From: an uncultured Halobacteriales archaeon
Lineage (GTDB): Archaea > Thermoplasmatota > E2 > JACPAO01 > JAHFTW01
DNA: 64,000 nt
NCBI GenBank assembly: GCA_964627625.1
Contig: CAZVJB010000002.1
Coordinates: 92,197 to 156,196 of the forward strand
Reading direction: 5' to 3'
Part shown: positions 6,079 through 20,950 of the stretch, piece by piece
How positions within the stretch are numbered: the stretch's first letter is position 1
How the letters are laid out: each line of letters opens with the position of its first letter
Translations under genes and position numbers: made by a program
Notes under the pieces: generated by a model
Database searches by the model: none
Seen by the model: only the letters and a program-made list of their open reading frames with translations
Told to the model about the DNA's origin: nothing

Positions 6079-8277
6079 CTAACGAAGCGGCTCTTTTTCC
6101 TTCCGCTTGCGCCGTCCCTTCTTGGGCGCATCGTCTTTCGCCGGCTCCGCGTGCGCCGCGTTTGCGTCGCCCCCGCCCTTTTCCAGCATCGCTCCCGACT
6201 TCTCAAAAATGCGCCGCGCGACCTGCATGGGCTTCTTCCGGGGGCCGACGCGTTCCTCGACGTCGTGCTCCGCCTGCGCGACGCGTTCCGGCTTGGCGTC
6301 TTTCGGCAATTGGCCCGACTTCAACTGCATGATTTCGTCGCGAAGCAGGGCGGCACGTTCGAAGTCCCATGCCTTGGCTGCCGATTGCATTTCCTGCTCG
6401 AGTGATTTGATGAGCTTGTCGAATCCAGTCTTGTCGAGCGTGGCGAGTTTCTCTTTGCTGACGAGGACCGGTTTCTCCCCGAGGCGACGGCCGTCGATTT
6501 CGATGCCCTTCATGGAGCGCACCGCGGAGACCGGCGTGATGCCGTGCTGCTTGTTGTACGCAATCTGTGTCGTCCGGCGTTGCGACGTGGCCGCAATCGC
6601 CTTCGCCATGGCATCACTCATGCGGTCAGCGTACATGATGACGCGGCCGTTGACGTTGCGTGACGCCCGGCCAATCGTCTGTACGAGGGCGGTTTCGCTG
6701 CGCAGGAAACCGATTTTGTCCGCATCGAAGATTGCCACCAGGCTCACTTCAGGCAGGTCGAGGCCTTCGCGCAGGAGGTTGATGCCAACCAGGACGTCGA
6801 ATTCGCCTTTGCGGAGCTTTTCCAGGATGATTATGCGCTCCAACGTGTCGATATCGCTGTGCAGATAGGTGACTTTCAGGCCGAGGCCGGCATAGTATTT
6901 CGTGAGTTCCTCGGCCATCTTCTTCGTGAGCGTTGTGACAAGGATTCGCTCGCCGCGTTTTGCGGTCTTTGTGATTTCGCCGTAGAGGTCGTCCACCTGC
7001 CCTGCAATGGGGCGTACGATGACTTCGGGGTCGATGAGGCCTGTCGGGCGAACCACGGCTTGAACGCGCAATTCTTCATGCTCGGCCTCATACGGCCCGG
7101 GCGTCGCGCTGGTGAAGACGCATTGCTTGAACTTGCGCTCCCATTCGGGGAACTTGAGCGGCCGGTTGTCGAGCGCCGAAGGCAGGCGGAAGCCGTACTG
7201 GATGAGGGTTTCTTTGCGCATGCGGTCGCCATTGTACATGCCGCGCACCTGCGGAACACTCACGTGCGATTCGTCAACGATCAGGAGGTAGTCCTCCGGG
7301 AAGTAATCCATGAGACACGCGCCAGGGTCGCCGCGCGGACGGCCGGAGAGAGGTTGGCTGTAGTTCTCGATGCCGTTGCAGTAGCCGATTTCGCGCAGCA
7401 TCTCGATGTCGAAGCGCGTGCGTTGCTCGAGCCGTGCCGCCTCCAGGATTTTTCCTTGCGTGCGCAATTCGGTGAGACGGTCCTTGAGTTGATCCTGGAT
7501 GCGCAAGATGGCGGCCTCAAGTTGATCGGGAGGCAAGACGAAGTGCTTGGCGGGGAAGATGGTCATCGCCTGGTACGTCGCGATGCCGTCGGCCGTCAGG
7601 GAATGCACGCGCTTGACGGACTCGATTTCATCGCCCCACAAGGCCACGCGGATGGGATGCTCGTCCCCTGGCGGCAGGATGTCGATGGTGTCGCCGCGCA
7701 CGCGGAAGGTTCCGGGTTTGAGTTCGGCGTCGTTGCGTTCGTAGTAGATGTCAACCAGGCGTCCCACCAGGGCGCGGCGTTCCATTTTCTGGCCGGCCTG
7801 CAGCAAGACGTTGGCGCTGCGGTAGTCGTCGGGCGAACCCAAGCCATAGATGCAGGAAACGGAAGCGACCACGACGACGTCCTTGCGCGTCATGAGTGCC
7901 TGTGTGGTCGCGTGGCGAAGTTTCTCGATCTCCTTGTTGACGTCGGATTCTTTGGCGATGTAGGTGTCCGATTGCGGGACGTACGCCTCTGGCTGGTAGT
8001 AGTCGTAGTAGGAGACGAAGTATTCGACGGCGTTCTTGGGAAAAAAGGCCCGCATTTCCTCGTACAATTGTGCCGCGAGAGTCTTGTTGTGCGAGATGAT
8101 GAGCGTCGGCTTCTGCAACCGCGTAATGGCCTGTGCCATGATGTACGTCTTTCCGACCCCGGTTACGCCCTGGAGTGTCACGAAGCGCTTGCCATCTCGG
8201 ACCGCTTGCACCACGGCGTCGATGGCGGGCCCCTGGTCGCCCGCGGGCTCGAACGGCGCCTCCAACTCGAACGGCAC
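6079..8277 (-). CDS. uvrB: Excinuclease ABC subunit B
   Basis: 732 aa. Walker A TLQGVTGVGKTY, helicase motifs, the UvrB beta-hairpin region and a C-terminal UVR-like segment. It has an unusual K/R-rich C-terminal tail. Confidence 0.95.
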   Translation of the reverse strand: MPFELEAPFEPAGDQGPAIDAVVQAVRDGKRFVTLQGVTGVGKTYIMAQAITRLQKPTLIISHNKTLAAQLYEEMRAFFPKNAVEYFVSYYDYYQPEAYVPQSDTYIAKESDVNKEIEKLRHATTQALMTRKDVVVVASVSCIYGLGSPDDYRSANVLLQAGQKMERRALVGRLVDIYYERNDAELKPGTFRVRGDTIDILPPGDEHPIRVALWGDEIESVKRVHSLTADGIATYQAMTIFPAKHFVLPPDQLEAAILRIQDQLKDRLTELRTQGKILEAARLEQRTRFDIEMLREIGYCNGIENYSQPLSGRPRGDPGACLMDYFPEDYLLIVDESHVSVPQVRGMYNGDRMRKETLIQYGFRLPSALDNRPLKFPEWERKFKQCVFTSATPGPYEAEHEELRVQAVVRPTGLIDPEVIVRPIAGQVDDLYGEITKTAKRGERILVTTLTKKMAEELTKYYAGLGLKVTYLHSDIDTLERIIILEKLRKGEFDVLVGINLLREGLDLPEVSLVAIFDADKIGFLRSETALVQTIGRASRNVNGRVIMYADRMSDAMAKAIAATSQRRTTQIAYNKQHGITPVSAVRSMKGIEIDGRRLGEKPVLVSKEKLATLDKTGFDKLIKSLEQEMQSAAKAWDFERAALLRDEIMQLKSGQLPKDAKPERVAQAEHDVEERVGPRKKPMQVARRIFEKSGAMLEKGGGDANAAHAEPAKDDAPKKGRRKRKEKEPLR

Positions 8278-8349: not shown

Positions 8350-8673
8350 TTACCGGCGCTTTGCGCGGCCCTTCTTGGCCGGCTTGGGCGTTTTTGGTTT
8401 CTTCGGAGCCTTCGCTTTCTTTGCCGCCTTGACGGTTGGCCTGCTTTTCTTCGCCGCGACCTTCTTGGTCTTCTTGGCAACCGGCTTTTTGGCGGGTCGC
8501 TCCAAGGCTTTCCTAGCCTTTTTGGCAACCGGCTTGCGCGGCACGGCGGGTTTGCGAGGCGACCGCTTTGCCACGGGAGGCAATGGCGGCCGCTCAGTCC
8601 ATGGCGCGGCAGGAGCATTCGGCATCGGCTTGCGGCGGAAAAGGCGCAGCGCCATCAACCGGAACACGCGCAA
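8350..8673 (-). CDS. Lysine/alanine/proline-rich basic protein (histone H1-like / AKP-repeat DNA-binding tail protein)
   Basis: …PVAKRSPRKPAVPRKPVAKKARKALERPAKKPVAKKTKKVAAKKSRPTVKAAKKAKAPKKPKTPKPAKKGRAKRR. It lies directly upstream of uvrB and is co-oriented with it. The start is uncertain. The antisense ORF 8036-8836 is hydrophobic junk. Confidence 0.35.
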   Translation of the reverse strand: MRVFRLMALRLFRRKPMPNAPAAPWTERPPLPPVAKRSPRKPAVPRKPVAKKARKALERPAKKPVAKKTKKVAAKKSRPTVKAAKKAKAPKKPKTPKPAKKGRAKRR

Positions 8674-9087: not shown

Positions 9088-9333
9088 ATGAACGAACCAA
9101 ACGTCCAACCGCACCCGGTCCCCGCCTCTGTGCAGGCCGTGCTGAACACTCTCAACCACCACAAACCCATGACGGGCAAGCAGTTGCGGGAAGCCACCGG
9201 CCTCCCCCGCCGCACCATCTACACGGCCCTGCGCCGGCTGCGCGAGATGGGCCTTCTTGAGGAACAAGCCAGCCTGCGCGATACGCGGCAGACCTACTTC
9301 TGGGTCCACGAAGCAAAACCCCAGCCAAACTGA
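9088..9333 (+). CDS. Small winged-helix transcription regulator
   Basis: 81 aa. KPMTGKQLREATGLPRRTIYTALRRLREMGLLEE… is a typical single wHTH (MarR/TrmB-like) protein. Confidence 0.6.
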   Translation: MNEPNVQPHPVPASVQAVLNTLNHHKPMTGKQLREATGLPRRTIYTALRRLREMGLLEEQASLRDTRQTYFWVHEAKPQPN

Positions 9334-9529
9334 AACGGACCCCATGCGGTTTTCTGCGGCCGCGAACTGTCGCCGCCTGGCGCGATGATCTAGCACATCG
9401 TCGGTGAATGATGATCGGATTGGACTTTGGTGAGCGCCGTCCCCTTGCGCATTCTGCGCGCGATTGACACAGCAAAACTACATCCGGAGAGCCGGCTAGG
9501 CAGCCTTCAGGCCTGGCCGTCTACCTGCC

Positions 9530-10096
9530 GTGTTGCCATTTCTTAGCCTGCTTGTTGTTGCTTCCCTCGCTGGATGCGCGACACCACAATCGTCTGCCGA
9601 GGGCGTGGACGACTCCTCTGACCAAGCCGCAACGAGCCGCCACGCCGCGCCTCGAGAAGTTCCTGTTGATGTCATGGTGCAGCAAACCATGACGCCAACA
9701 CCGACGGTCTGCGACCCAGCCACTCCGAAGGAATGCGCCACCTACCATTACACTGGAACCATGTACTTCGCAGGCACTTGGAACGGTACAGCGCCGTACG
9801 TCGGGTACATCTTCTACAATGAAACCACGGCCCGCACGGACTTCGTGGACCAGCCCATCATGTTCACCGGCACGATGGCGGGGTGCGGCACAGGCTCGAT
9901 TCACCTGAGCGCAATCGGCTACACGGACAACGTGCCAACCACCGAAGGCTTCCATCTGCACGGGAATCTCCGGGACCTCGCGGGGACCGCGTCGGTTGGA
10001 ATGGGACACGTCGTCGACATCGACTTCCCGTTCGACGCATTCCTTGGCGCCTCGGGCTTCAATTTCCATCTGACTGGCACCATGCTGTGTATGTGA
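9530..10096 (+). CDS. Secreted lipoprotein with one copy of a novel ~180-aa Cys/Gly/Thr-rich domain
   Basis: Lipobox LLVVASLAGCATP. The domain carries the motif …FTGTMAGCGTGSIHLSA…. It is paralogous to the three repeats in the next gene. Confidence 0.6.
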   Translation: MLPFLSLLVVASLAGCATPQSSAEGVDDSSDQAATSRHAAPREVPVDVMVQQTMTPTPTVCDPATPKECATYHYTGTMYFAGTWNGTAPYVGYIFYNETTARTDFVDQPIMFTGTMAGCGTGSIHLSAIGYTDNVPTTEGFHLHGNLRDLAGTASVGMGHVVDIDFPFDAFLGASGFNFHLTGTMLCM

Positions 10097-10164
10097 CCTG
10101 GCCAATTGGCCTGGCTTGTACCTAGGACTTCTGCGGCGCCGGTGGCGACGGCCACTCCCTCCTG

Positions 10165-11862
10165 TTGAGCCGACAATTCGGCGTAGACTGTACAGAGCAA
10201 AGCTATTTTTATTTGCCATTCTCACCGCCGCTCATGTCGATTCGCTTGAAGCTTGTGCTACCCTGCGTAGGCGTCCTGCTCGTTGCCAGCCTTGCGGGTT
10301 GCGCGACCCCCAAATCAGCCGCTTCCGAAGGTACCGGGCCTGCGGTGGACATTCCGACGGTCAACGGCCAAATCCGGCCAGACCTCATCGGGACCTTGGC
10401 CATCCCCATCACCGGCGCATGGACCTCGGAAGGCGACTTGCGGGCGGATCAATTCACCTGCGCCCCGGAAAAGCCCGGCGGTTGCGAGTACTACTCGACG
10501 ATTTTCCTCGACTTCACGGGCACGTTTACTGGCAGGATGACGGACATTTTCCACTTCCATTGGGCGGGGTCGGGCAGCACGGTCGATGCCCAGGCGCTGC
10601 GGCTCGTCACGGGATCGTTTGCCGGGTGTGGCTCGGGCACGATGAGTATGCGCATCGACGGCCCCGCCTCGATTGACCCGAATCCGGACAAGCCCGGCAG
10701 CGTCCACATGAAAGAACCCTTGATGTCGATGGTGCCGGGCTCGACGTCGACAGGACTCGCCGCCGTCGTAGACGCCCAGGTCACGCTCGAATTCAACCTG
10801 ACTGGGGACTCCATCCATGATGGCACAATCAACGGGGCCATATGGTGCCGAATGGCCGCCGTGCCGGACACTAGCCCGAGCCACGAGGGTGCGGTGCCCA
10901 TCGAGGTCAACGCCAAGTTCACGACAGATGGCATCCTGCTTCCTCATTCGGTTGCGTGCAATCCACCGACCAGTCCGCAAGAGTGCGAATTGTATGAGAC
11001 CCAGTATGTGGACTACACTGGGACAATGAATGGCACCCTTACGGATCCGGCGCACGCCCACTCCAACGGCGATGGCACCCTCGAAGCCGATGTCCTGCGT
11101 CCCTTCACCGGCTCCATCGCTGGCTGCGGCTCGGGTACGCTGGTCCTCCACCTCAAGGGAACAACGGGAAAACTCGAACCCAATCTGAGCGCGCCCGGCA
11201 CGTTGCACCTCGTGGAACCAAAAATGACGCTGTTCCCCGGTTCGACTACGGCCGGCTTTGCGGGCGTCGTGGACGCTAATTTGACGAACGACTTCATCAT
11301 CACTGGCCCAGCGTCTGGCTACGGGACCATCTCCGGGACCATCTGGTGCAAGACCGCCGCCGTAAACGAAACGCCGGCCGATGCCGCCGCAGCTCGAATC
11401 ATCCCTGTTGCAACCAAGTTTGAAACAGATGGCTACGCCGTCCTCAGCTCCATCGCTTGCGCTCCCACCAATCCTGGCGGATGCGAATTTTCCGGCACCG
11501 AAATGTGGTGGGTCGTGACTGGCACCTTCAACGGCACGGTCTTCGACCGCTTCCACGCCCACGGCCAGCCGGACGGAACGTTTACTGGCCCAGCTGAGCG
11601 GACGTTCACCGGCTCCATCGCGGGTTGTGGTTCGGGAACGCTGACGCTGACCGGCACACTCGTGGTCAACTTTGGCGAACCGGACACCACATATCCAGGC
11701 TACGTAACGACGCACGAAATCTTGTCGCTCGTACCAGGCTCGGGGACGGCCGGCTTTGCGGATTTGGTCGATGCCCAGATTACCGCCGACTACGCAGTGT
11801 CGGGGACTGGCAACGGGTCGACCAAGGGCGCAACCATGGCCGGAACGGTCACGTGCCGCTGA
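10165..11862 (+). CDS. Lipoprotein with three tandem copies of the same novel domain
   Basis: Lipobox LLVASLAGCATP. Three repeats each contain FTGS(F/I)AGCGSGT(M/L)… and …PGS(T/G)(S/T)(T/A)G(L/F)A(A/G/D)(V/L)VDA(Q/N)(V/L/I)T. Confidence 0.65.
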   Translation: MSRQFGVDCTEQSYFYLPFSPPLMSIRLKLVLPCVGVLLVASLAGCATPKSAASEGTGPAVDIPTVNGQIRPDLIGTLAIPITGAWTSEGDLRADQFTCAPEKPGGCEYYSTIFLDFTGTFTGRMTDIFHFHWAGSGSTVDAQALRLVTGSFAGCGSGTMSMRIDGPASIDPNPDKPGSVHMKEPLMSMVPGSTSTGLAAVVDAQVTLEFNLTGDSIHDGTINGAIWCRMAAVPDTSPSHEGAVPIEVNAKFTTDGILLPHSVACNPPTSPQECELYETQYVDYTGTMNGTLTDPAHAHSNGDGTLEADVLRPFTGSIAGCGSGTLVLHLKGTTGKLEPNLSAPGTLHLVEPKMTLFPGSTTAGFAGVVDANLTNDFIITGPASGYGTISGTIWCKTAAVNETPADAAAARIIPVATKFETDGYAVLSSIACAPTNPGGCEFSGTEMWWVVTGTFNGTVFDRFHAHGQPDGTFTGPAERTFTGSIAGCGSGTLTLTGTLVVNFGEPDTTYPGYVTTHEILSLVPGSGTAGFADLVDAQITADYAVSGTGNGSTKGATMAGTVTCR

Positions 11863-11887: not shown

Positions 11888-12400
11888 CTAGGTTTTGCTC
11901 GGAGCCGCCGGCGCCGGCGGCTTCCACGGCTTCGACTTCACCGGCGATCCGCAGACGATGCATTCGTCGCGCTTCGGCATGGTCTCGTACCAGCGGCCGC
12001 AACCCATGCAACGCGGGCGGAAATCCAACTGGGTAGAGATTCCCGTCGTGTTCACCGTCTGAGTTGGCACGCGCAGGCGATTGGCCACGTCGAGGAGAGT
12101 GTAGTCGTCGGTAATCAGCGTCGCAGACAGGTCGAGTGCGAGGGCCGCGAGGCTAATGTCGGCAACACTCAAGCGACCGAGATTGCCGGCAGCCATGGCG
12201 GTGGTCTCGACGCGGTCGACGGAATCCTGGTTGGCGCTGCGGACTTGCAGGCCGAGGGTGATCCAGCCTTCGTAGCGGCGGGCATCCTTGCCGCCAGGCG
12301 AGACCTCCGCGGCAGCCTCGGGCGTCGTGGCCCAGGAGGACGAGCGCGGTGGCTCCTTGCCGCCCAGGAGTAGGGAAGTGTCGAGGACCAGCCAGGCCAC
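11888..12400 (-). CDS. Nob1-like PIN-domain endonuclease with a C-terminal zinc ribbon
   Basis: PIN start …WLVLDTSLLLGG… with acidic residues …ITDDYTLLDVAN…. C-terminal CMGCGRWYE…CIVCGS four-Cys ribbon. The architecture matches archaeal Nob1. The start is probably a GTG around 12400. The track ORF N-extension is non-protein-like. Confidence 0.6.
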   Translation of the reverse strand: MAWLVLDTSLLLGGKEPPRSSSWATTPEAAAEVSPGGKDARRYEGWITLGLQVRSANQDSVDRVETTAMAAGNLGRLSVADISLAALALDLSATLITDDYTLLDVANRLRVPTQTVNTTGISTQLDFRPRCMGCGRWYETMPKRDECIVCGSPVKSKPWKPPAPAAPSKT

Positions 12401-12563
12401 GGCATCGCAAAGTGGCCAAGGCCCTAAGCCTTGTGGGCGGAAACAGCCCGGCCTCGCGTACGCCGGCGGGGCGGCGTCACGGCCTCGGTGGGCCACGTTC
12501 GGATGGGTGCGCCTGCCCGGCGGCCGCCCCACAACTTTTCAAGCGTGGGGCGGTCGCCGCCCC

Positions 12564-15463: not shown

Positions 15464-18400
15464 CTAAGCCCCGTTGCGCCGGCGCACCGCAACCAACGCG
15501 ATGAGGGCGCCCACGAGCGCAACCAGGGGCACGCCCGGCGAAGGCGAACTTGGGCCGGAGGTCGAACTGGACGTCGACGAGGGCACGCTCCCAGTGACGG
15601 TCAACGTCGCTGTATCGGTGACGCCGCCCGCAACGGCCGAAATCTTGTAGGTTCCAGGCGCCGTTGGCGTGCACGTCAAGGCGACGCACGAGGCATTGGG
15701 CGTGCTGGACAGAATGACCCCAAGAGTTGCCGCGCCAAGCGGGTTCCCGGCGGCGTCGGCACCCGTGACCGTGAACGTCTGGGGCAGCCCAAGGCCAATC
15801 GTCGCAACGGCCGGAGTCAACTGCAGGCTGGCGACCGGGCCTGCAAAGGTCGTCACCTCGAAGCTGGCGGCCGCGGACAAGCCGGCAACCGACGCCTTCG
15901 CGGTGCTCGTGCCCAGGGTTGACCTGGTGAAGGTCGCAGAGGCCGTGCCCGTGGCGTCCGTTAGGCTCTCGGTCGTCAAGATGGCCCCGCCGCCAGTGAC
16001 GGTCCAGGAGACCTTGGCACCTACGATGCCCTTCCCTGAGGAGTCTTTGACGATGGCGGCGAGCACAAGCGGTACGCCGGCGGGGTGCCGAGGCGCGCCG
16101 CTACTTACCGACGTGATGGAGGCCGCGGCAGCGGTTGGAACATTGAAGGTCAAGGGGCTGCCCGCAAGGCCGGTCGCCGTTGCCGTGGCAGTGTTCGCGC
16201 CGGCCGTCGGCCCGGTCGTCAACGTGGCCGAGGCCGTGCCGGTGGTGCCGGTCAGCGTCGGTGTCGGGCTGATTGTGCCGCCTCCTGCAGTGACAGCCCA
16301 CGCGATGGACACGCCCGCGACGCCATTGCCGAATTGGTCCTCCGCCGTGACCTGCAAGGCCTGCGCCGTCCCGGGGCCGATGGTGCCGACCGCCAACGCA
16401 GATTGCGTGATTGCCTTGGGCGCGCCGGGCGTCACGGTGACGGCCTTCTTGCCGATGACGCCTTGGTAGTTGCCCGTCACGTCATGGTTACCGGCTTTCG
16501 TGAGCCCGGTGCACACCTTGCCGGTGCAAGTGCCGCCGTTGGCGACCGTGAAGAAGGTGGTGTCCGAGAAGTCACCCATGAGTTGGCCTGCGGCGTTGTA
16601 GCCCAGGGCCGTTGCCGTCACTTGGCCCGTATCGGCGCTCACGGTGGTCGCAGAAAGCGTGACGTCGAGGCGGTCGGCGACTGGGCATCCTTGGCACGAG
16701 GTTCCGGGCGCGTTGATCTTGAACGTGAGGGGGCTACCGGTCAACCCGGCGGCCGTTGCCGTAATGGTCATGGCACCCGCGGTGGCACTCGTCTTGATTT
16801 CCGCCGTGGCAGCGCCCGAGTCGTCCGTCGTGGAACTTGCCGTGTTCAACGTGCCGTCACCGGTCTTGGCCCAGGAAATCGGAACGCCCGCCACGCCGTT
16901 TTGGAAGAGGTCGCGTGCCTGGATTACGAGGATGAGGGTCCGGCCTCCGGCCACGTTGCTGAAGTGGGCGTTTGGAGTTACAATTTCAACGGCGGGTTTG
17001 GAAATGAAGATGGTTCCGGAGTGTTGCTCGAGGACGGCGCCGGCATTTGTTTGGAGTTGGACGTCGAACGTCGAGTAGCGGCCCCTGGTCGTGGGGTTTG
17101 TGACACCGTCAAAGGTGATGGTGATGGACCCCGGTGGGCATGGAGAGCCTCCGGTGCGGGTCAGGGTTACCACTTGACCCAAGAAGCCCGAAGTCAGTGT
17201 ACCATCACAGCCCGACAGGGTCACCGATGTGGGTGTTGGTGCCCCGACGATGAAATCCGTGGGGAAGGTGATTTCCAGGTTTCCGTCTGCCGGCCAGGAC
17301 GTTGTAGTCGCCATGAAGAATGTGTACGTGGTCGGCGCGTCTGGCGACGGGTCGGCCGCTCCGACGATGACTGGCGTCACCGGACCGGTGGACAATAGGA
17401 CGCTTGCCGTGTCAATGGCCGCCGGCGCGGCGGTCTGGGTCTGGAAGGCGATGAGGTTGTTCGACGCACCCAGCGGATTGGTGATTCCGTTCAGGCCGAT
17501 GATGACGACGGTGTTCGCCGCACACGACGTTCCGGGGATGCGCGTCAACGTGTACGTCTGGCCGGAGACGTCCGGAGGAGCCCAGGTCCCGTCACATCCG
17601 GTCGGCGCAGGATTCGGAGTCACGGCGAGGGTGAAGCCGGCGGGGAACGTCGCAACAAAAGATCCGTCGGCCGGCCAGGGGTTCGTGGTGGTGAACTGGA
17701 ACGTGTAGCTCGTTGTTTCGCCGGCTTCCACCGATCCAGGGGTGATGGATGCTGCCGCCAGGGTGCCTGGCGTCAGCGTGACGGATGGAAGGGTCGCCGC
17801 GTCGATGATCACCGCAGCGTTGCCGCCCGCCGTCGAGGTCTCTGTGCGCACGGTGCCGGTTCCGGTCGCGCCGGATGCCTGGACGTTGCGGATCCCGGAA
17901 ACGGTGACCTTCGCGAGCGTGCCTGCAGGGCAAACCGTGCCGCCGGAACGCGTCACCAGGACCGTGTTGGCGCTTGGGTTCGTGGCGGTGAGCGTGCCGC
18001 CCGTGCAGCCGGTCGACGTCGCAGTCGCAACGAGTCCCGTGTAGCCGTAGCCGGTGGGGAAGATTAGGCGGACGGCGCCATCTGCGGGCCACGCATTGGC
18101 CAGAGTGAATCCTGCCGTGTGAGACGTGACGGCGCCGGCCGTCGTGCTGGCGGCCTCCAGCGTCGGCGTCGTCAGCGCGGCCGCCGTGAAGGTCAGCGCC
18201 TGGGGGCCGGGGGGCGCGGTGGGGAAAGCGGGCACGTCGGCCGTCGCGTCGATGGCCGCGCCGGCGGAAGTGGAGGTCCTCCAGGAGACGCCATAGGGAA
18301 TGGCCGCCGTGGGGGCGGGCACAGCTGGCACCGACGGGTTGCGCATGTTGGCAAGCGAGAGAACGATTCCAGTCGTGCCTGCAGGGCAGTCGGAGCCGCC

Positions 18401-20950
18401 GAGGCGAGTGATGGTGACGTCCTGCGTGGTGCCCACGCGGGCCGCGGTGAACGTGCCGGTGCTGCACGCGCCCGAGGAAGCGACGCTGGCACCGACGGTC
18501 GAGACGCCCACGCCGGCCGGGAAATTGATGGTCAACATGCCGTTGAATGGCCAGGCATTCGTGATGCCGAACGTGAAGGTGTGCGACGCGGTCGAGCCAG
18601 CCGCGGCCGGGACCGCCGCCACAGAGGTCGGTGTGATGGCGCCCGGAGTCAGCGTGACCGAGCCGGACCCGGTGTCAATGGTCGGGTTGCCGGCGGCATT
18701 CGTGGCCGTCCTGAACGAGATCGTCCCGGACGCACCCGCGAAGGCGGGGTTGCGGATGCCGCTGAGCGTGATCGTCGCGGCGCTGCCGCCGAAGCACGTG
18801 CTGGGAGTGCCCGTGCGTGAAACGGTGACCGTCTGGCCCGAGGCCGTTGCGCCAAAGGTGCCGCTCGTGCAGCCGGTTGCGGGGGGAGTCGCGCCGACGC
18901 CGGAAACGACGTAGCCCGTCGGGAAGGTCACCATAAACAGGTCGGGCCCTTGCCAGTCATTGGCGAACGTGTAGGCGAACGTGTACGACGTCGTAGCGCC
19001 CGCAACCAGCGATGTAGCCGTGATGGCCGTGCTGGTGAGCGTCCCCGGGTTGATTGTGACGCTGGCGGTGCCGAAATCAATGTCCGCGCCGCCAGGCGCC
19101 GAGGTGCGGATGTCGCCCACCGTTGCAAACGATTGCAGCCCTGCATAGCGCGGGTTTCGGATGCCGCCGAGTGTCACGGAGACCGTCCCGGCGGGGCAGG
19201 TGGCGCCCGCGCCATCACGCTGGATGGTCACGAGCTGACCGGCGCGCGAGACGATGAATGTCCCGCCCGTGCAGCCCGTCATGGTCGCCGGCGAAGTGAC
19301 TCCCGACACGTCGACGTCGGCCGGGAAGCTGATTCGAATGGCACCATTTGCAGGAATGGCGTTGGCCGTCGTGAAAGTGAATTTCCAGTCGGCGATGGTG
19401 CCGGCAATCGCCGTGGTCGGCGTGAGCGCGATGCTGGTCGACGTGAGCGCACCCTCCATGACGAATGGCGGCTTGACGAGGTCGATAACGGCGGCTGCCA
19501 CCGGGCCAGGCGTTCCAGCCTGCGACAAGTCGGCGCTCGCCGGCGCCGCGCCAACGATTGAGACGAGGGCGGCGCCCCAGGGAATGCCGGGTCCGGTAAT
19601 CGTGCGCCCCAGGTCGGCCACGGTAAAGGCCGCGCCGGCAGGACTCGCAACGAGCGTATCCTCCGGGCTAGCCCCGACGGGCGCCGCGTCCGTGATGGAA
19701 CCATCGGTGAAGAACCGAATGGGGGTAGAGTCGATGAGCCCCGTGGCGACCGTGACGTGGATGCCCGCCGCGGGGACCGCAAGGACGGAGGCCTGCGACA
19801 CGGTGACGCTCGTTGCGGTGCCAAAGGCCGTGATGGTTGTGCCCGCGGGGAGGATGCCTGGAGCGATGACAAGGCGGCCGACGTCGGCGGCGGTGAATGC
19901 CGCGCCAGTTGCACTCGTCAGGGTCGAGCTGGCTGCAGCAATGGCACCATCGACGAAGGAGCGCTGGCTGCCGCCACTTGTGAAGGTTGTTGCGACAATG
20001 CTACCGGGGGCGCCCACGACGCCCGGGTTCTTGACACCCGTCACGGTGACCTTCAACGTTTGTCCGGGCACGCACGCGGCACCGCCCGACCTGGTGAGCG
20101 TGAGCGTGGGCGTGGCGACGGTGCCGACGGGTGACGCGCCCGGTGCGAGGGTCGTCTTGGCCACGGCGACGGCGCCACTTACGCAGTCAGCCCCGGTGCC
20201 GGTCAAGGAGACGCTCGTGACGCTGAAGGGCTGCGGCGCGTAACTGGTCGGGAATTCGATGACCATATTGCCGTCGGCAGGCCAGGTGCCTTGGCCAGCA
20301 AACGAAAAGCTGTACGAGGTCGACGCGCCGGCCACCGGCGTGGCGGGCGTGGTCGTCAACACACCGCCCGATAAGGCCCCGACCAGGACGATGTTTTGCG
20401 TGACGGAGTCGATAGTCGCCGAGCCGAAGTTGCGGGTGCGGATGTCGATGGTGTGGCGGCCGGAGGCGGCTGGATTGTCGAGGCCGTTGATCGTGAACGA
20501 CACGATGATTCCCGCGCCGCAAATACCGCGCGTCCCGTCACGCGTGAGAATCACACGACCGGCCGCGGAAAGGTCAATGCTACCGATTCCCTCCGGTCCT
20601 GGGGCGCTGCATGCAGTTCCGGTGAGTGCGAAGCCGGTTACCGAGGCCGCGGTGTCGGTCCAGGCGGCCGGGAATTGGACCACAAGGTTTCCGTCCGCGG
20701 GCCATCCCCCGTCCGCGGTGGGAGTTGCCAGTACGAACGTGACCTTGTGGGAGGTGGCCGCGTTGCTCACTGCCAAGTTGGAAGGGACGTCGAAAGGCTG
20801 GGTTCCATCAGCCGTAAGCACCGAGGCCTGGGTGCCCGGGATCAGAAGTAGCAGGAATGCGCAGGCTGCCACGGCCGCCAGTCCCACCAGGACGAAGGGG
20901 CTAGCGCCGCGTTCATTCGACATGCCCTGGGGGAACGACCCGGACCGCAT
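15464..20950 (-). CDS. Giant (1828 aa) cell-surface glycoprotein-like protein with many Thr/Gly/Ala-rich Ig-like repeats, Big_2 domains and a C-terminal TM anchor
   Basis: N-terminal signal peptide (FVLVGLAAVAACAFLLLLIPGTQA). Repetitive beta-rich modules. Two C-proximal Big_2-like domains (…ALQVTAEDQFGNGVAGVSIAWAV…). A Ser/Thr/Pro linker, then PGVPLVALVGALIALVAVRRRNGA (TM plus basic tail). Confidence 0.8.
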   Translation of the reverse strand: MRSGSFPQGMSNERGASPFVLVGLAAVAACAFLLLLIPGTQASVLTADGTQPFDVPSNLAVSNAATSHKVTFVLATPTADGGWPADGNLVVQFPAAWTDTAASVTGFALTGTACSAPGPEGIGSIDLSAAGRVILTRDGTRGICGAGIIVSFTINGLDNPAASGRHTIDIRTRNFGSATIDSVTQNIVLVGALSGGVLTTTPATPVAGASTSYSFSFAGQGTWPADGNMVIEFPTSYAPQPFSVTSVSLTGTGADCVSGAVAVAKTTLAPGASPVGTVATPTLTLTRSGGAACVPGQTLKVTVTGVKNPGVVGAPGSIVATTFTSGGSQRSFVDGAIAAASSTLTSATGAAFTAADVGRLVIAPGILPAGTTITAFGTATSVTVSQASVLAVPAAGIHVTVATGLIDSTPIRFFTDGSITDAAPVGASPEDTLVASPAGAAFTVADLGRTITGPGIPWGAALVSIVGAAPASADLSQAGTPGPVAAAVIDLVKPPFVMEGALTSTSIALTPTTAIAGTIADWKFTFTTANAIPANGAIRISFPADVDVSGVTSPATMTGCTGGTFIVSRAGQLVTIQRDGAGATCPAGTVSVTLGGIRNPRYAGLQSFATVGDIRTSAPGGADIDFGTASVTINPGTLTSTAITATSLVAGATTSYTFAYTFANDWQGPDLFMVTFPTGYVVSGVGATPPATGCTSGTFGATASGQTVTVSRTGTPSTCFGGSAATITLSGIRNPAFAGASGTISFRTATNAAGNPTIDTGSGSVTLTPGAITPTSVAAVPAAAGSTASHTFTFGITNAWPFNGMLTINFPAGVGVSTVGASVASSGACSTGTFTAARVGTTQDVTITRLGGSDCPAGTTGIVLSLANMRNPSVPAVPAPTAAIPYGVSWRTSTSAGAAIDATADVPAFPTAPPGPQALTFTAAALTTPTLEAASTTAGAVTSHTAGFTLANAWPADGAVRLIFPTGYGYTGLVATATSTGCTGGTLTATNPSANTVLVTRSGGTVCPAGTLAKVTVSGIRNVQASGATGTGTVRTETSTAGGNAAVIIDAATLPSVTLTPGTLAAASITPGSVEAGETTSYTFQFTTTNPWPADGSFVATFPAGFTLAVTPNPAPTGCDGTWAPPDVSGQTYTLTRIPGTSCAANTVVIIGLNGITNPLGASNNLIAFQTQTAAPAAIDTASVLLSTGPVTPVIVGAADPSPDAPTTYTFFMATTTSWPADGNLEITFPTDFIVGAPTPTSVTLSGCDGTLTSGFLGQVVTLTRTGGSPCPPGSITITFDGVTNPTTRGRYSTFDVQLQTNAGAVLEQHSGTIFISKPAVEIVTPNAHFSNVAGGRTLILVIQARDLFQNGVAGVPISWAKTGDGTLNTASSTTDDSGAATAEIKTSATAGAMTITATAAGLTGSPLTFKINAPGTSCQGCPVADRLDVTLSATTVSADTGQVTATALGYNAAGQLMGDFSDTTFFTVANGGTCTGKVCTGLTKAGNHDVTGNYQGVIGKKAVTVTPGAPKAITQSALAVGTIGPGTAQALQVTAEDQFGNGVAGVSIAWAVTAGGGTISPTPTLTGTTGTASATLTTGPTAGANTATATATGLAGSPLTFNVPTAAAASITSVSSGAPRHPAGVPLVLAAIVKDSSGKGIVGAKVSWTVTGGGAILTTESLTDATGTASATFTRSTLGTSTAKASVAGLSAAASFEVTTFAGPVASLQLTPAVATIGLGLPQTFTVTGADAAGNPLGAATLGVILSSTPNASCVALTCTPTAPGTYKISAVAGGVTDTATLTVTGSVPSSTSSSTSGPSSPSPGVPLVALVGALIALVAVRRRNGA

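Follow-up and report, generated by a model that had tools for sequence, protein, structure and literature searches.

A divergent DUF3224-like barrel, present once and three times, in two predicted lipoproteins of an uncultured archaeon

We analyzed two adjacent genes, here called LipoA and LipoB, in a stretch of 64,000 nucleotides (the window) from contig CAZVJB010000002.1 of an uncultured Thermoplasmatota archaeon. They encode paralogous predicted lipoproteins that carry the same module, once in LipoA and three times in tandem in LipoB, as an earlier note made from the DNA letters had described. The module is a divergent eight-stranded barrel of the DUF3224 / SO1590-like type, within the allene-oxide-cyclase/dirigent-like superfamily. 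The fold and family link, the four-cysteine pattern of each barrel, the export signals, the fixed three-barrel architecture and the synteny of related loci are directly established. On this basis, and with a probability of roughly 0.55, we read LipoA and LipoB as exported, lipid-anchored surface proteins with barrels of a DUF3224 branch, acting as a ligand-binding co-sensor of a phospho-signalling cassette or as its regulated output. The features of the locus are as follows, with those of the two lipoproteins first.

9530..10096, + strand: LipoA, GTG start, 188 amino acids, one DUF3224-like barrel
9530-9577, + strand: predicted signal peptide and lipobox of LipoA, residues 1-16 (lipobox SLAGC16)
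9644-10093, + strand: LipoA barrel, about residues 39-188
10234..11862, + strand: LipoB, 542 amino acids, three tandem DUF3224-like barrels
10234-10302, + strand: predicted signal peptide and lipobox of LipoB, residues 1-23 (lipobox SLAGC23)
LipoB residues about 24-53, + strand: low-complexity tether between lipobox and barrels
10393..10851, + strand: LipoB barrel 1, residues 54-206 (Cys 76, 84, 132 and 205)
10891..11352, + strand: LipoB barrel 2, residues 220-373 (Cys 242, 251, 298 and 372), the copy used for modelling
11392..11859, + strand: LipoB barrel 3, residues 387-542 (Cys 409, 417, 465 and 541)
9088..9333, + strand: winged helix-turn-helix (wHTH) gene, an open reading frame (ORF) of 81 amino acids
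10097..10114, no strand assigned: palindrome from the repeat search, 91% complementary
10204..10214, + strand: TATA-like A/T run TATTTTTATTT, a candidate archaeal promoter judged from its position

Fold and family of the repeated module

The four copies of the module were compared using tblastn. Copy 2 of LipoB is 43% identical to copy 1 (E 4e-36), 45% identical to copy 3 (E 3e-29) and 30% identical to LipoA (E 1e-7). Thus, the homology of the four copies is real and far beyond chance, and the arrangement of one copy followed by three is confirmed. The repeat unit had been estimated at about 180 residues; the repeat itself stands, and its dimensions are smaller, with a folded unit of about 150 residues and a period of 166-167 residues. 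The motif FTGS(F/I)AGCGSGT, described as invariant, is matched exactly by copies 2 and 3 of LipoB alone; the corresponding position reads VTGSFAGCGSGT in copy 1 and FTGTMAGCGTGS in LipoA, and the core that does not vary among all four copies is TG-x-x-AGCG-x-G. Similarly, the second motif, PGSxxxGxAxxVDAxxT, holds in the three tandem copies and is degenerate in LipoA (AGTASVGMGHVVDIDFP).

The AlphaFold2 model of LipoB barrel 2 is all-β, with a predicted local distance difference test (pLDDT) value of 93.3 and a predicted template modelling (pTM) score of 0.86. It shows the eight-stranded barrel topology of the allene oxide cyclase (AOC) type. A Foldseek search with this model gives an E value of 2.9e-5, and the fold is superposable on two members of DUF3224 (PF11528), 2q03 from Shewanella denitrificans and 2ooj, which is SO_1590 of S. 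oneidensis. The sequences lead to the same family. We built profile A4 from 137 of the 268 proteins matched in the wide search described in the next section, and these 137 also serve for all counts of wider relatives. Against the PDB, A4 gives an E value of 7.8e-5 for 2q03 and of 0.21 for 2ooj, with the motifs FTG..G.G and GS.TG..L aligned between A4 and 2q03. The two motifs picked out in the earlier note align with FTGSLGD-KKGSF and VERSATGDFVHLV of 2q03, so they are the family's own motifs. The Pfam model of DUF3224 matches 75 of the 137 wider relatives (best E 5.6e-15). It also matches 5 of the 31 domain copies of alignment A2 (best E 2.7e-4), which were cut from ten three-domain homologues and LipoA, and the homologue P0006 carries a precomputed PF11528 annotation. 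A phmmer search of the PDB with LipoB yields only a marginal match to AbmU (E 0.05), in hindsight a true member of the superfamily.

Several results count against the assignment. Neither LipoA nor LipoB is matched in Pfam and NCBIfam scans, and the DUF3224 model finds none of the four window copies at E = 1, nor LipoA, LipoB or window copy 2 at E = 1-10. The clade-only profile A2 retrieves no true PDB entry, only a spurious Myt1 kinase at E ~0.7. Since both the Pfam model and A2 miss, the sequence link needs the wider family as a bridge. These misses would be expected of a domain that is new, as the earlier note held, and has no relation to known families. The 75 DUF3224 matches among the 137 relatives and the profile match to 2q03 refute this idea, and we give it almost no weight. 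The placement with the DUF3224 / SO1590-like barrels is essentially the confident assignment to a known family that the earlier note had itself held to be decisive against novelty.

We compared the window proteins with the solved members of DUF3224, which are single-domain proteins of 131-141 residues. The window proteins carry a lipobox. They differ from the solved members in an H-x-H motif, in the four cysteines that are invariant in every barrel, in longer loops (about 150 versus about 130 residues per barrel) and in a one- or three-domain architecture; the cysteine of the GCG turn is absent from 2q03. The AlphaFold model of full-length LipoB has a pLDDT of 78 and a pTM of 0.79 despite about 50 disordered N-terminal residues; therefore, the three barrels are predicted to adopt one defined arrangement. 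The same single-barrel matches are recovered when this model is searched against the PDB, with no multi-barrel template among them. It is an attractive idea that the three barrels might form a pseudo-trimer like those of AOC and dirigent proteins; DUF3224-type structures do not form trimers (PMC4340379).

Characterized members of the AOC-barrel-like superfamily include allene oxide cyclase, dirigent proteins, the pyocyanin demethylase PodA and the bacterial [4+2] cyclases AbyU, AbmU, PyrI4, Tsn15 and AbnU, with 3-15% sequence identity. As in these proteins, each barrel of LipoA and LipoB would hold a small ligand, hydrophobic or aromatic, in a pocket to which a conserved D-x2-H-x-H-x3-D stretch may contribute. 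Substrate binding, one of the roles proposed in the earlier note, is thus plausible from the modelled fold. All characterized structural neighbours are catalysts or reaction-directing proteins, and the barrels could likewise be extracellular enzymes that bind a small reactive compound and direct or catalyze its conversion, for example in the detoxification of a redox-active aromatic, with the Asp and His residues being catalytic. However, the closest neighbours, 2q03 and 2ooj, are without known activity, and LipoA lacks the His pair. To our knowledge, there is also no precedent for a lipid-anchored protein with three catalytic barrels in tandem, and the association with kinase and FHA genes described below suggests signalling more than metabolism. 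We regard an enzymatic role as doubtful.

Export signals, cysteines and three-barrel architecture

A word-indexed search of 5.8 billion proteins returns only ten relatives, all of them three-domain proteins. An exhaustive HMMER scan with profile A2, covering 1.84 billion cluster representatives, gives 268 proteins at E <= 1e-3, including 71 at E <= 1e-10, and a scan of the genome collection with an alignment of eight copies, which is limited by its motif, finds three loci. Surface proteins of the branch contain one, two or three barrels. A hydrophobic N-terminus is present in 111 of the 137 wider relatives and a lipobox-like motif in about 33, and many of the others are fragments or truncated gene models. 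Of 13 three-domain homologues, 11 have a lipobox cysteine ahead of the barrels; the database sequences of P0003 and P0006 show no N-terminal signal region. One two-barrel relative, P0037 (L014, 4882-6228), combines a Sec-type signal peptide with LPVTG at its C-terminal end, behind which come a hydrophobic segment and a basic tail. The LPVTG is a sortase-type sorting signal; therefore, the same barrel would be wall-anchored in some Gram-positive-like bacteria. Because of the cysteine pattern, the hydrophobic N-termini and lipoboxes, and the LPVTG signal, we consider these proteins to be a rare, putatively extracytoplasmic branch of DUF3224 that combines four-cysteine barrels with a signal peptide or lipobox.

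Each copy follows the pattern C1-x(4-14)-C2 ... G-C3-G-x-G ... W-C4-[KR]. All four cysteines are invariant in the 31 clade copies of A2 and invariant or nearly so among the wider relatives. C1 and C2 bracket a variable loop. After export, the four cysteines of a barrel would form two disulfides, of which C1-C2 would close this variable, Pro-rich loop. Several polar positions of A2 are also conserved: D52 in 29 of 31 copies, H55 in 25, H57 in 21, and D61 and D128 in 24 each. These residues raise the question of a metal- or redox-active module, in which H-x-H, Asp and/or Cys (GCGSG, W-C-K/R) would coordinate a metal ion or form a thiol redox couple, so that the barrels would sense, buffer or deliver metals at the cell surface. 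An H-x-H on a β-strand puts both imidazoles on one face, GHxH recurs in several more distant relatives, and the four cysteines are conserved more strictly than anything else. However, two disulfides are the simpler explanation of four cysteines in an exported protein, and the His pair is absent from 2q03 as well as from LipoA. No metal transporter or chaperone gene lies nearby, and no metal-binding family is matched in Pfam or NCBIfam. Hence a metal or redox function seems improbable to us.

The three-barrel architecture is constant, since 13 of 13 three-domain homologues, which are 28-40% identical to LipoB, carry exactly three copies. The mean identity of copies is 38% within one protein and 35-38% between proteins. 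Only copy 1 can be paired clearly by position, with P0002 and P0003 (50-51%); elsewhere, positional orthology is blurred. A recent intragenic expansion was considered and rejected, as the copies are only 43-45% identical at the protein level. With three copies kept in every homologue and this degree of divergence, the triplication is not, as had been suggested, actively evolving; it is old and fixed, with no ongoing expansion.

The signal peptides of the two proteins end in nearly identical sequences, ...LLVVASLAGC16ATPQ in LipoA and ...LLVASLAGC23ATPK in LipoB, with VASLAGCATP in common. Both conform to the lipobox rule [LVI][ASTVI][GAS]C after a hydrophobic h-region near the N-terminus. After export, Cys16 of LipoA and Cys23 of LipoB would be lipidated and so hold the barrels on the external side of the membrane. 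The n-region of LipoB is MSIRLK. In LipoA, GTG 9530 is the only possible start and runs straight into the hydrophobic core without a charged n-region, an atypical signal peptide that counts against our overall reading. An in-frame TAG lies 33 nt upstream of this GTG, and before the TAG there is a would-be Arg-containing n-region, AAFRPGRLPA (region 9497-9577); the TAG may have arisen recently by a nonsense mutation or reflect a mistake in the assembly. The public gene models of LipoA, with 135 and 140 amino acids, begin downstream and thus omit the signal peptide. Orthologues of LipoA with 41-43% identity are found in L003/L004 and L008. The L003 orthologue has 192 amino acids, an ATG start, an n-region beginning with MQR and the lipobox LAAGC.

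LipoB, read from ATG 10234, is 100% identical to the database protein P0001. A longer ORF from TTG 10165 (10165-11862) was rejected as the gene, because P0001 begins at ATG 10234 and a TATA-like box lies inside the longer frame. The window, with 62-65% GC, contains only seven A/T runs of at least 8 nt; this box, TATTTTTATTT, is the longest of them and sits 20-30 nt before the LipoB ATG. The simplest reading is an archaeal TATA box that belongs to LipoB itself, whose transcript would then be leaderless or have a short leader. A near-perfect 18-nt palindrome, CCTGGCCAATT/AATTGGCCTGG (CCTGGCCAATTGGCCTGG), directly follows the LipoA stop and lies about 90 nt ahead of the TATA-like run; it could be a terminator or an operator.

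The mature proteins contain 10.5-12.9% Gly, 13.5-14% Thr and 2.3% Cys. An N-G-T sequon in the G-T-x-N-G-T turn (A2 residues 47-49) is present in 14 of 31 copies, including LipoA and copies 2 and 3 of LipoB, and LipoB has seven N-x-S/T sequons in total; on a surface protein, such sites could be N-glycosylated. Such a composition would also suit a structural or adhesive surface component, that is, a stiff stalk or coat element built of three barrels, on an archaeon that has no wall, with no specific small-molecule ligand. The predicted lipid anchor and the low-complexity tether, the rigid three-barrel body with its pTM of 0.79, the Thr/Gly-rich sequence with several sequons and the several paralogues per genome in relatives all agree with this. 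Nevertheless, the fold class is a ligand-holding barrel and not an adhesion module of the Ig, PKD or cadherin type, and adhesion, the other role named in the earlier note, finds no specific support. The rarity of the family would be unexpected for a core envelope component, a conventional surface protein of 1828 amino acids with Big_1 stretches is already encoded in the window, and linkage to kinase and FHA genes is not typical of structural proteins. A purely structural role is therefore an unlikely explanation.

Kinase and wHTH-FHA genes in related loci

We compared the gene order of eight loci, namely the window, L001, L003, L007, L008, L009, L011 and L012. In six of the eight, a wHTH-FHA gene and a Ser/Thr kinase gene adjoin one- or three-domain lipoprotein genes. 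The order is given below, where (-) denotes the opposite strand.

L001, 6000-12200: three-domain, FHA, kinase(-), three-domain
L003, 870-7720: three-domain, FHA, kinase(-), one-domain (41% identical to LipoA), three-domain
L007, 2300-5650: FHA, three-domain, kinase(-)
L008, 900-12150: FHA ... kinase(-), one-domain, one-domain, kinase(-), one-domain (43% identical to LipoA), one-domain
L009, 2100-10700: one-domain(-), three-domain, FHA, kinase(-), one-domain, one-domain ... one-domain
L011, 6960-12450: FHA, three-domain, kinase(-), PP2C-like phosphatase fragment

Each cassette includes one to five lipoprotein genes with one or three barrels. The wHTH-FHA protein has 239-266 residues with an N-terminal ArsR/MarR-like wHTH, and its identity of 68-77% between genomes is far above the conservation of the lipoproteins. 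The kinase has 640-674 residues and is built of 7-9 predicted transmembrane helices joined by short loops and, behind them, a Pkinase domain (E 2e-38); it has no extracellular domain of its own. L001 contains an additional 419-residue paralogue of the kinase membrane domain that lacks the kinase part.

Pairs of a kinase and an FHA-containing DNA-binding protein are an established archaeal signalling unit (PMC5007285). Sulfolobus modules of this kind are ST1565/ST0829 and ArnC/ArnD-ArnA/ArnB. In the related loci, a Ser/Thr kinase gene adjoins a gene for an FHA domain fused to a DNA-binding domain, which follows the logic of the kinase-FHA-promoter circuit reviewed in PMC5007285. The cassettes described here differ in several respects: the DNA-binding part is a wHTH and not a zinc finger, the kinase carries a membrane domain of 7-9 helices, and the surrounding DUF3224-like lipoprotein genes are lacking in Sulfolobus. 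The window itself has no cassette, which is a further difference from the Sulfolobus modules. The association of DUF3224-like lipoproteins with kinase and FHA genes appears to be undescribed in the literature searched.

Bacterial lipoproteins are known to act as co-sensors beside membrane kinases that have little or no periplasmic domain, such as LpqB with MtrB and NlpE with CpxA. We use these systems as an analogy only, because the folds are unrelated, those kinases are histidine kinases and the archaeal case is known from genes only. In our reading, the surface barrels would bind a small ligand and act with the kinase/FHA cassette, either as a co-sensor or as a directly regulated output. We consider this role the most likely one, since the lipoprotein genes are interleaved with the kinase and wHTH-FHA genes in most of the related genomes. 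In the window, the LipoA-LipoB pair is separated from the cassette and stands beside the stand-alone 81-residue wHTH gene, and LipoB appears to be expressed from its own TATA box.

Several further results weigh against our overall reading. In tblastn searches, neither a kinase nor an FHA gene of this kind is matched in the 64-kb window, and L012 also lacks the pair. The link between lipoproteins and cassette is thus guilt by association and comes from relatives only. The gene contexts of bacterial relatives (trigger factor/Clp in one case, aromatic lyase/AsnC in another) show no common theme and no kinase/FHA setting. The FHA call on the C-terminal half of the wHTH-FHA protein rests on a precomputed Pfam annotation and a weak match to the CHFR FHA domain (E 0.11), and hmmscan of the protein returns no FHA at E <= 0.01. 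In LipoA, the His pair is replaced by Tyr/Phe, so that H-x-H is absent from one of the two proteins. By strand parity, C3 and C4 are not obviously at the same end of the barrel. Finally, the family assignment gives a fold and not a job, because DUF3224 is itself a family of unknown function; we found no functional study of it, and no paper in the searched literature names DUF3224.

A bolder version of the co-sensor role would make the DUF3224-like lipoproteins the missing extracellular sensing subunits of an undescribed archaeal system. The barrel would capture a ligand and signal to the kinase, which would in turn act on the wHTH-FHA factor via phospho-threonine binding, and the single-chain pseudo-trimer of LipoB would mimic the homotrimer of AOC and dirigent proteins. 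We offer this scheme as speculation with rather low odds. If true, it would provide the first function for DUF3224 and a lipoprotein co-sensor principle in archaeal Ser/Thr signalling.

Neighbouring genes and significance

Directly upstream of LipoA, the earlier note had placed a small wHTH gene that might regulate the lipoproteins. The gene is real. Its 81-residue product exceeds the curated Pfam cut-offs of TrmB (31.5 versus 25.6 bits), MarR_2 (31.6 versus 27) and HTH_27 (31.6 versus 22.2), each with an E value of about 2e-7, and the public assembly (L005) also calls the gene. The protein is a bare MarR/TrmB-like wHTH without a sensor domain. A conserved linkage to its proposed targets is not seen: tblastn finds no orthologue beside the lipoprotein genes in the seven other loci compared, and its only matches are the window and contig L005, which is from the same organism. 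LipoB also has a TATA-like box of its own.

The remaining neighbours are housekeeping genes (UvrB, PIN_6, PAC2, TtuA, TauE and a malate/lactate dehydrogenase, the last judged by eye from its sequence only) and the gene of the Big_1 protein; they give no hint of a shared pathway. UvrB (6079-8277, - strand) has 732 amino acids and a Lys/Arg-rich C-terminal tail (...KDDAPKKGRRKRKEKEPLR). Its closest relatives, from metagenome-assembled genomes (MAGs) of Thermoplasmatota, have 690-760 residues, and more distant bacterial matches have about 660. The GC content of the DNA is 60-70%. The closest named relatives of this UvrB (76-81% identity) are from Thermoplasmata/Thermoplasmatota MAGs, and the UvrB of the L008 contig is 82% identical. 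Three MAGs with the lipoprotein family (L006, L007 and L008) are labelled 'Halobacteriales archaeon' by NCBI, and these labels look inconsistent with UvrB.

Between UvrB and the wHTH gene, an ORF of 107 amino acids (8350-8673, - strand) encodes an extremely basic Lys/Ala/Pro-rich sequence (...KKPVAKKTKKVAAKK...AKKAKAPKKPKTPKPAKKGRAKRR) and contains an internal 48-nt direct repeat (8462-8487 / 8510-8535). It is a 101-residue gene in the public assembly L005 and has no Pfam match; it could be a histone-H1-like nucleoid protein. Convergent with LipoB is an ORF for a PIN_6 (Nob1-like) ribonuclease (11888-12532, - strand) with a C-terminal CxxC...CxxC zinc ribbon. This ORF of 214 amino acids probably starts internally, the public model having 170. 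The Big_1 protein mentioned above is encoded by an ORF of 1828 amino acids (15464-20950, - strand), about 3.6 kb from the lipoprotein genes; it contains three Big_1 stretches and, toward the C-terminus, one that resembles invasin D3, and is a conventional giant surface or adhesin-type protein.

For the window, the result is modest: LipoA and LipoB are two divergent members of a known, uncharacterized family, detached from the cassette found in their relatives. For the family, it reaches further. DUF3224 is represented by two crystal structures, and the exported four-cysteine branch defined here is largely missed by the Pfam model. The embedding of this branch among kinase and wHTH-FHA genes in uncultured Thermoplasmatota is the first contextual clue to its function. 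If the link is functional, it would provide a handle on how Hanks-type kinases without an extracellular domain perceive signals, and on the ligand of the barrel.

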